Shown here piece by piece: positions 12,062 to 14,616 of a DNA stretch of 16,185 bases (position 1 is its first letter; each line of letters opens with the position of its first letter). The stretch is taken from the IMG/VR virus record IMGVR_UViG_2609460125_000016, positions 1 to 16,185 of that record. One strand, given 5' to 3'. Position numbers and translations under genes: made by a program. Source of the DNA: a virus. Its lineage: Duplodnaviria; Heunggongvirae; Uroviricota; Caudoviricetes. The notes beneath the pieces are model-generated. The model was given only the letters and a program-made list of their open reading frames with translations. It was not told where the DNA came from and ran no database searches.

Positions 12062-13327
12062 TTATTTTTTTATTAAATCAAGAGTTAACCATGGAGGGAG
12101 CACTGTAAATGAGACGGCTTCTCCATGTTTTGCTTTATTTATTAATTCTGCTCCTTGAGACCAGTTCATGTCAGGAAGAGGGGTTATAAAAAAGTTTAAT
12201 TTTATCATTGCAATAAGGATGACTGAAACATAGATTTTAAAGAATATTTTTAAGGTTTTATTCTTTATGCATTGAAACAAACAAACGCATATTAATGAAA
12301 AAATTGCAATATGAATATTTACAAAATACCTTGACCCGTTTCCGGTTGCAAGTGTTGGCAGTTGAGGAACAGAATCTGCCAGTTGAGGTTTTGCCATAGA
12401 AAATGCGACAATAAGTATTGGAAGGGTGGCAAACACTTTCATTTGCCAATTTCCTTTAATATAAATGAAAACACATAATGTAATTACTAAAGTTGATAGT
12501 GTGTACGATAAAAGGTGATTGTCCCATCCAGCATTAGCGATATTCCAAGGGACAAATGAAAAAAGAAATACATTAGATGATATTATAGATGACATAACAT
12601 CAAAACTGAATCCTAATGGAGCATGTGATCTTGTTCCATTAAATGTAAGAATTATTGATGTTGCCTGTATCAGCCCACACAAGATCATTGCCAAATATGG
12701 CAGTCGAGTATAAAATAAGTATAAACCTCTTATGCTTATTACTCCTTTTGATAAGTGTAAATATTTAAAAACAGATGATGCAATTATGAATATAATAAAT
12801 GGACCGCTCAATCCAGATAATACTATAAAAAATAAATCATGTGCTTTCCATAATTTTGACTTGGATTCTTCAGATATTATTATCATTGCAACATACAATG
12901 ATAAATACCAGTGAGCATTTGTTATATTGGCTTGGACTTCATCAAGCCCGGGCATGCAAATTAAATATACAGAGATGAAGATTTTTGATGTGGTGCTTAG
13001 GAATTTAAATCTATCGGTAAATAAGAACCATATAATTATAGCTCTAATTATTATTCCAAAAAAGTTTGATAATAATGGTGCGTAAATTGGATTAATAAAT
13101 GTCGTCGCACCAACAATGAGTGTTGATACTGTTTGAAAATAACCATTTCTTGGGGTTATGAGTGAACTGAAAAAACCTTGTTCGTATGCATCTTTATACC
13201 AAAAAACTGCATCCTCAGCCCAAAACTGGGCATTTGTCAAAATGTCAATGCGTCTAAGCCAAATCAAAGTAAATGCAAGTATAAAAATTGATATCTTGTG
13301 CCAATTGCGCATTATGAATATCTTCAT
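12062..13327 (-). CDS. Serotype-specific O-antigen glucosyltransferase (GtrC / Gtr-type family), polytopic membrane protein
   Basis: 421-aa highly hydrophobic multi-pass ORF, third gene of the gtrA-gtrB operon on the minus strand, with an AGGA RBS in the 12-bp gap after the gtrB stop. Very AT-rich (13/60 G+C in the line starting 12241, versus 35/60 in the gp10 line starting 2521). Type-specific Gtr enzymes are known to be poorly conserved. Confidence 0.7.
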   Translation of the reverse strand: MKIFIMRNWHKISIFILAFTLIWLRRIDILTNAQFWAEDAVFWYKDAYEQGFFSSLITPRNGYFQTVSTLIVGATTFINPIYAPLLSNFFGIIIRAIIIWFLFTDRFKFLSTTSKIFISVYLICMPGLDEVQANITNAHWYLSLYVAMIIISEESKSKLWKAHDLFFIVLSGLSGPFIIFIIASSVFKYLHLSKGVISIRGLYLFYTRLPYLAMILCGLIQATSIILTFNGTRSHAPLGFSFDVMSSIISSNVFLFSFVPWNIANAGWDNHLLSYTLSTLVITLCVFIYIKGNWQMKVFATLPILIVAFSMAKPQLADSVPQLPTLATGNGSRYFVNIHIAIFSLICVCLFQCIKNKTLKIFFKIYVSVILIAMIKLNFFITPLPDMNWSQGAELINKAKHGEAVSFTVLPPWLTLDLIKK

Positions 13328-13339
13328 AAGATCATCCTG

Positions 13340-14257
13340 TTATTTTCTGCTTTTAATTAAGTACCGTGGTCTTGATTTTGTTTCTAAATAAATTCTACCT
13401 ATATATTCACCGAGAACACCAATCCCGATCAGTTGCACTCCACCCAGGAAAAGTATTGATACAAGCATGGAGGGATACCCGCGTACTGGGTTACCAAAGA
13501 CAATGGTGTCTATAATCATCCATGCACCATATAAAAATGAAATGCTTGCAACAAACAAGCCTATATAAGTCCATACGCGAAGAGGAAAGGTTGAAAAACT
13601 TGTGATACCTTCCAGTGCCAGATTCCATAATTTCCAGCCATTAAATTTTGAGATGCCAGCAACACGCTCTGTGCGTACATATTCAACGACATCTGTCTGA
13701 CCACCAACCCAGCTCAGTATGCCTTTCATGAAAAGATTGCGCTCAGGCAATAGTTTAATGTTCTCCACAACCTCACGAGACATGAGTCGAAAATCTCCGA
13801 CATTTTCCTCTATTTTTGGGGTGCTTATTTTGTTGTGTAATTTATAGAACCACTCAGCTGTCTTACGTTTCAGCCGTCCATCAGTTGAGCGGTCTGAACG
13901 TTTAGCAAGCACCATGTCAGCACCTGCCTGCCACTTTTCAATAAGATGAGGAATAACCTCAATCGGGTCTTGCAGGTCAACATCAATTGGAATCACGGCA
14001 TCGCCGGTTGTATGGTCTAACCCTGCAAACAATGCTGGTTCTTTACCAAAGTTGCGTGTAAATGACAGCGGAACAACTAGCGGATCAGAAACAGCCAGAG
14101 CGTTAATGATTGACTCCGTAGCGTCTTTGCTTCCGTCATTTATGAAAACAATTTCTACTTCATATGGCTTCAACTCTTCGAATTCACGTACCGTTTTATA
14201 AAAAATTGGTATCGCTTCTTCTTCATTGAAGACAGGAACGACAAGAGATATCTTCAT
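13340..14257 (-). CDS. gtrB: Bactoprenol glucosyltransferase GtrB (GT2 family)
   Basis: 305 aa: [20 protein letters not shown]...INDGSKDAT...DVDLQDP... with two C-terminal TM segments; typical GtrB architecture and length. Overlaps gtrA by 4 nt. Confidence 0.9.
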
Positions 14258-14616
14258 TTCGCATCCCTAAAGACAATGAACTTTGAATAGACGAAACCGC
14301 ACACCAAGCTGATGGCGGAGAAGGTAACAAGAGTGACAATTGGAGGAAGTGAACATCTATCAGCAACCCATCCAACAGTAGCACTCAGTGTTCCCATGAA
14401 CCCGACATATAACATGTAGCGCATCGTTGTAGTTGATGCTTTGAATGTGAATTTTGCATTCGCAAAGAAGCTAAAACTCACAGCCACAACGAAACCTGCG
14501 AAGTTTGCCATAGCCTGATTGGTATGCGCGGCATAGATACATACACCAAAAACCACCCAGTGTATAAGTGTGTTCAGCACGCCTATAGATGTGTACTTTG
14601 CAAATAGCTTTAACAT
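14254..14616 (-). CDS. gtrA: GtrA, small four-TM flippase-like protein of the O-antigen glucosylation system
   Basis: 120-aa hydrophobic protein [30 protein letters not shown]...KFIVFRDAK, first gene of the operon and translationally coupled to gtrB. Confidence 0.85.

Follow-up and report, generated by a model that had tools for sequence, protein, structure and literature searches.

The three genes at positions 12062-14616 of the window (the whole stretch of 16,185 nt analysed here) are almost certainly the gtrABX operon of the P22-like temperate phage SfX, situated at the attR end of a prophage in thrW of Shigella flexneri and predicted to act through the three-component Gtr pathway. The identities of the genes, their intactness and their genomic position were established in this analysis. 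By its agreement with deposited SfX sequences, the locus is a gtrA-gtrB-gtrX O-antigen glucosylation operon that is already known and long characterised (L05001.1/AAA71895.1; GTRA_BPSFX; prophage in strain 2002017, CP001383), and the modification type is, by the same comparison, a known one and not a new one. No result of the analysis spoke against this identity. The window shares with SfX the gene order, the adjacency of a thrW att core to an SfX-type integrase and the context of a P22-like tailspike. Unlike the SfX record of 1993, it has four base differences, a start codon lying five codons upstream and an IS-cut integrase remnant.

The third gene, gtrX (12062-13327, minus strand), encodes 421 aa from the ATG at 13327, and its product is annotated as the type-specific O-antigen glucosyltransferase. 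A megablast search of phage records with region 11900-14800 as the query returned L05001.1 ('Bacteriophage X glucosyl transferase gene', SfX) with 99.7% identity over 1434 nt. Two of the four differing bases are silent changes within gtrX, and the other two are in the 3′ end of the tailspike gene. In BLASTP, GtrX was identical to the SfX glucosyl transferase AAA71895.1 at 416/416 residues. The original annotation uses a 416-aa form from the ATG at 13312 (ADA72694.1), while the 421-aa form starts five codons upstream, where the ATG at 13327 has a better Shine-Dalgarno sequence. The deposited SfX DNA includes these five upstream codons, and tblastn gave 100% identity over 421/421 residues. Public protein entries for both length variants bear names such as 'glucosyl transferase [Shigella flexneri]'. 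For the exact 421-aa sequence, an index of public assemblies lists 1795 blocks, of which 27 include contigs larger than 1 Mb.

The first-pass annotation had regarded this gene as a divergent type-specific transferase whose modification could not be read from the sequence and might be an undescribed glucosylation type, and it had named near-identity to a characterised Gtr type as the result that would speak against this view. Such near-identity is what the comparison with AAA71895.1 and L05001.1 returned. A divergent, possibly undescribed Gtr type making a new O-antigen glucosylation would fit the lack of a Pfam or NCBIfam family for the third gene and the narrow circle of its phage Gtr(type) relatives at E ≤ 1e-3, namely GtrX itself and GtrV; but the SfX glucosyl transferase that was cloned in 1993 has the same protein sequence (100% identity), and the protein occurs in well over a thousand public assemblies, which leaves that explanation with virtually no probability. 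Given the identity of GtrX to the SfX reference, the modification can be deduced from the sequence after all, as the group 7;8 determinant to which gtrX has been tied (PMC3728103, PMC3306764). We infer that the locus confers group antigen 7,8.

Without a database, GtrX looks like an orphan, since it falls into no family and has few relatives. Searches against Pfam (E ≤ 0.001) and NCBIfam assigned it to no family, and Glucos_trans_II (PF14264), the Pfam family of GtrII-type proteins, gave no match at E ≤ 0.001. No PDB sequence matched at E ≤ 1, and a single-sequence AlphaFold2 model was poor (mean pLDDT 44.2, pTM 0.23). The protein was placed in PHROG 19534, 'glucosyltransferase' (E 5e-49). A search of about 50,000 phage records revealed a single other relative, GtrV of phage SfV (97% of the length aligned at 35.4% identity, E 4e-58), and no match to GtrX among the other phage Gtr types at E ≤ 1e-3. 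It is very unlikely that the transferase architecture of GtrX departs from the canonical GT-C fold, and nothing found points there.

GtrV (U82619.2) has the same role as GtrX, that of the third gene product of a gtr operon, but represents a separate characterised type, which gives the type V antigen. GtrV glucosylates rhamnose II. The GtrX/GtrV lineage is without a curated family model or a solved structure from which the choice between rhamnose I and rhamnose II could be read. SfV itself does not belong to the same kind of phage as SfX, which is P22-like and short-tailed (PMC3851460).

The two partner genes were assigned to known families. The product of gtrA (14254-14616, minus strand) is a small membrane protein of 120 aa, which is taken to flip undecaprenyl-phosphate-glucose. 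It matches Pfam GtrA_DPMS_TM (PF04138; E 2.6e-13, 50.6 bits against a cut-off of 26.1) and the GtrA-like PHROG 2224 (E 2.5e-70). In an exact-sequence look-up it was found to be the same as GTRA_BPSFX (Swiss-Prot/UniRef name), and it is present on at least 999 contigs. The product of gtrB (13340-14257, minus strand), 305 aa long, is a predicted GT2 bactoprenol (undecaprenyl-phosphate) glucosyltransferase, with matches to Pfam Glycos_transf_2 (PF00535; E 1.2e-30, 107 bits) and to GtrB in PHROGs (E 1e-181). Its exact sequence was found on at least 999 contigs with Shigella-derived names, and at the nucleotide level the gene is 92-93% identical to gtrB of SfI, SfII and SfV. Two hydrophobic stretches of the protein (residues 231-253 and 264-286, approximately) correspond to the C-terminal membrane helices by which a three-component Gtr system is recognised. 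GtrB also aligns along its full length with the solved homologue sll0501 of Synechocystis (5EKP; E 8e-89, residues 2-302) and with ArnC (E about 1e-43), which puts it in the polyprenyl-phosphate glycosyltransferase family. Both of these proteins come from other pathways and are uninformative on the type-specific step.

The three genes are co-directional on the minus strand and convergent with the tailspike gene. In the sequence, the reading frames of gtrA and gtrB have 4 nt (ATGA) in common, a gap of 12 nt separates gtrB from gtrX, and an AGGA motif is located 7 nt 5′ of the ATG at 13327. We infer from this arrangement that gtrA, gtrB and the third gene are co-transcribed in that order. A terminator scan located a GC-rich hairpin at 12004-12031, within the 66-nt gap between the tailspike gene and gtrX. 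It has an 11-pair stem with eight G-C pairs, followed by TGTCGTGTTT on the minus strand, and likely serves as a shared terminator of the two convergent genes. The region 5′ of gtrA (14617-14905, minus strand) presumably holds the promoter and leader, and a promoter scan of the minus strand upstream of gtrA gave no match to the sigma-70 consensus.

In several assemblies (L002, L003 and L005 in our set of loci) the gene calls include a 48-codon ORF between gtrA and the att core, at about 14654-14800 (minus strand) of the window. It overlaps the stretch upstream of gtrA that is conserved with SfI, SfII and SfV. GATC occurs twice here, at 14671 and at 14776. This ORF may be a leader peptide, part of a regulatory region or a spurious call.

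The tailspike gene (10274-11995, plus strand), of the P22/Sf6 type, lies outside the operon. Its product carries a P22-type head-binding domain (Pfam Head_binding, E 4e-62), and genes of the P22 gp7/gp20/gp16 type are present upstream of it. At the nucleotide level, only the head-binding N-terminus is common to this gene and that of Sf6, the match stopping near 10625, whereas the match to phage Sf101 extends through the stop codon, to 11996. Hence, judging from the DNA comparison, SfX and Sf101 appear to share a receptor-binding domain unlike that of Sf6. A gene for an endonuclease with HNH and AP2 domains (9760-10302, minus strand), associated with an insert at about 9765-10360, separates the Arc/Mnt-like repressor gene (9368-9661) from the start of the tailspike gene. 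This segment is present in the SfX-type prophages L008, L012, L013 and L015 and absent from L002, L003, L009, L010, L011 and L014, a distribution that would be as expected for a mobile homing-endonuclease insert.

The base composition of gtrX sets it apart from its surroundings. Its GC content is 31.8%, compared with 41.5% for gtrB, 43.3% for gtrA, 43.8% for the tailspike gene and 49.7% for the structural genes at 183-9350, and the lowest 1266-nt GC value of the whole window is at gtrX. The open frame is far from random. At this composition, 421 codons free of stops have a probability of about 3e-14, and shuffling the region 300 times gave no open frame longer than 163 codons, compared with 425 observed. 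The protein contains at least seven strongly hydrophobic 19-residue segments, which supports a polytopic membrane protein. The nucleotide similarity to gtrAB of SfI, SfII and SfV (92-93%) starts at 13368-13388, 30-50 nt inside the 3′ end of gtrB, and ends at about 14740, about 124 nt upstream of gtrA. On the other side, the similarity to Sf101 ends at 11996. These two limits bound the gtrX cassette. In terms of these alignments, gtrX is a low-GC (32%) cassette of about 1.37 kb placed between two conserved modules, from the tailspike terminator to the gtrB breakpoint, and it is consistent with modular exchange of type-specific genes among phages. Much of the first-pass description therefore holds good: a gtrA-gtrB-gtr(type) operon of three minus-strand ORFs converging on the tailspike, recognisable GtrA and GtrB, a polytopic third protein of 421 aa encoded in DNA that is AT-richer than the structural genes in the windowed GC run, and, in view of the two similarity boundaries, its probable horizontal acquisition.

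The same architecture and genome position are known from Salmonella phage P22 and its relatives, where a tailspike gene is followed by convergent gtrC-B-A, attP at thrW and int. The gtrAB genes of the Salmonella P22-like phages are about 77% identical to those of the window at the nucleotide level. However, Salmonella GtrC showed no detectable relation to GtrX at the sensitivity used, and its acceptor is the Salmonella O-antigen. In Salmonella, gtr operons carry a phase-variation signature of four GATC sites acted on by Dam and OxyR. Such a four-GATC signature was not evident upstream of gtrA in the window, where only two GATC sites were found (14671 and 14776, 105 nt apart).

To the right of the operon, an att core (14906-14951, plus strand) comprises the 3′ 46 nt of the tRNA-Thr(CGT) gene thrW. 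ARAGORN and Rfam found no complete tRNA in the window, and the partial thrW was missed by both; it was identified by aligning the window to loci with a complete thrW. In this way, 14906-14951 was aligned to L014 16742-16697, the 3′ part of tRNA-Thr(cgt), and ARAGORN predicted a complete tRNA-Thr(cgt) at L014 16697-16772, adjoining genes in the proA/proB positions. A complete thrW beside genes in the proA/proB positions was found in L011 too. Phage HK542 has its annotated attP at the equivalent sequence. When E. coli genomes were queried with 70 nt of the att region, the hits were att sites that lacked annotation and gave no tRNA information.

Next to the att core lies the C-terminal remnant of a thrW-type tyrosine integrase gene (14966-15324, minus strand). 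It has 119 codons, matches only profile positions 101-170 of Pfam Phage_integrase and is 99.2% identical to the int region of the SfX record U82084.1. The similarity stops at 15324, where an IS3-family element interrupts the gene at 15324/15325. This element (15325-16185, minus strand) is partial, extending past the end of the window; it matches NCBIfam transpos_IS3 (E 8e-100) and has copies with 99.4-99.5% identity in Stx-converting phages. In the SfX record U82084.1, int is itself annotated as IS2-interrupted, at a different position.

The order tailspike, gtrXBA, att core and int is that of the vegetative attP, with an integrase fragment adjoining both the att core and gtrA, and in the draft contig L002 gtrA is adjoined by an int of full length (387 aa). 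These features would suit the attP configuration of free or excised phage DNA, and not a prophage end. Against this, int in the window is a 119-codon remnant cut by the IS3-family element. The chromosomal scaffold KN150717.1 (L012) matches 14124 nt of the window with 100% identity, and UGYS01000001.1 (L015) matches it with 99.98% identity. Past the right end of the window, both L012 and L015 continue through IS elements into a MASE2-GGDEF gene in the yaiC position and then a proC-like gene. Furthermore, a 98.8% identical int is found elsewhere beside a complete thrW and genes in the proA/proB positions (L011, L014). We rejected the free-phage explanation on the ground that the identical chromosomal scaffold continues into host genes, and consider it most improbable.

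The published attR side of serotype-converting prophages integrated at thrW lies between proA and yaiC (PMC3306764). As the scaffold runs into a gene in the yaiC position and a proC-like gene, these alignments place the window at the attR end of a thrW-integrated SfX prophage in an S. flexneri chromosome. In a single lysogen, int and gtr are at opposite ends of the prophage (PMC3306764). The remnant is for that reason interpreted as a probable relic of a neighbouring or tandem thrW prophage; its match to the int copy beside the complete thrW of L011 and L014 is close (98.8%) but not perfect.

Other S. flexneri chromosomes have a further cluster for O-antigen modification, at most a few kb away from the gtrX cluster. 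This second cluster is a Glucos_trans_II-type gtr gene in L008 (1-1866) and L009 (1-896), and a gtrAB pair with an Acyl_transf_3 acyltransferase gene in L010, L011 and L014 (about 2000-6100). With IS elements between the clusters, the locus is a stack of O-antigen modification modules.

Of the 5426 complete E. coli genomes searched, only one contained the whole gtrA-gtrB-gtrX cluster, with 96.5% identity. This genome (NZ_CP049204.1) belongs to E. coli PapM-32-1 from a baboon, and the matching segment, 3158266-3161117, includes the tailspike end. At about 80% nucleotide identity, a version of the cluster occurs in another set of E. coli strains, of human and avian origin. The exact genes are essentially a feature of Shigella flexneri.

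In the SfX operon of the window, the established three-component Gtr pathway would run as follows. GtrB, a GT2 enzyme facing the cytoplasm, would make undecaprenyl-phosphate-glucose from UDP-glucose, and GtrA would then move this carrier-linked glucose to the periplasmic face. There, the polytopic membrane transferase GtrX would glucosylate rhamnose I of the O-unit, so that group antigen 7,8 is formed. Guan et al. (1999) and Allison and Verma (2000) are said to have found that this glucose is alpha-1,3-linked to rhamnose I. From a serotype Y background, the addition of group antigen 7,8 would yield serotype X, and gtrX combined with other modification genes would yield 2b, 3a, 5b, 1d or Xv.

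The activity and the antigen are taken from published work on identical genes. SfX converts serotype Y to X (PMC3851460, PMC3306764). According to the summary given in PMC5364150 of Guan et al. 1999, a gtrX mutant showed no conversion, while gtrA or gtrB mutants showed partial conversion. The expected O-antigen was demonstrated by NMR with plasmid-borne or cloned gtrX (PMC9243986). In published Yv and Y strains, mutations have inactivated gtrX (PMC3728103, PMC10132075); the present gtrX copy is intact.

Could the operon be intact but silent, or phenotypically masked, and so not determine the serotype of its strain? The prophage end may be decaying and without transcription, or other O-antigen modifications may mask the product. 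The IS-cut integrase remnant and the IS elements that flank the prophage end would be in line with decay, as would the result of the promoter scan upstream of gtrA, and discordance between genotype and serotype is documented in gtrX-positive strains (PMC10132075, PMC3728103). But the documented discordant strains have frameshifts, stop codons or IS insertions, none of which is present here. All three ORFs are full length, with GtrX and GtrA equal to the SfX references and GtrB the common Shigella sequence, and the region upstream of gtrA is conserved with the functional phages SfI, SfII and SfV. We consider silence or masking unlikely, though less so than the other alternatives discussed above. 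The sequence identity and the intact reading frames argue instead for an SfX operon that is probably active in the source strain.

The AT-rich gtrX cassette exemplifies the known modular pattern of gtr loci. The SfX gtrABX locus raises no new question and its value is practical only. gtrX already forms part of PCR and in silico typing schemes (PMC3728103, PMC10132075). An intact gtrX predicts group 7,8 antigen and in this way aids the serotype call in S. flexneri (X, Xv, 2b, 3a, 5b, 1d), where the outcome with gtrX depends on the other modification genes.
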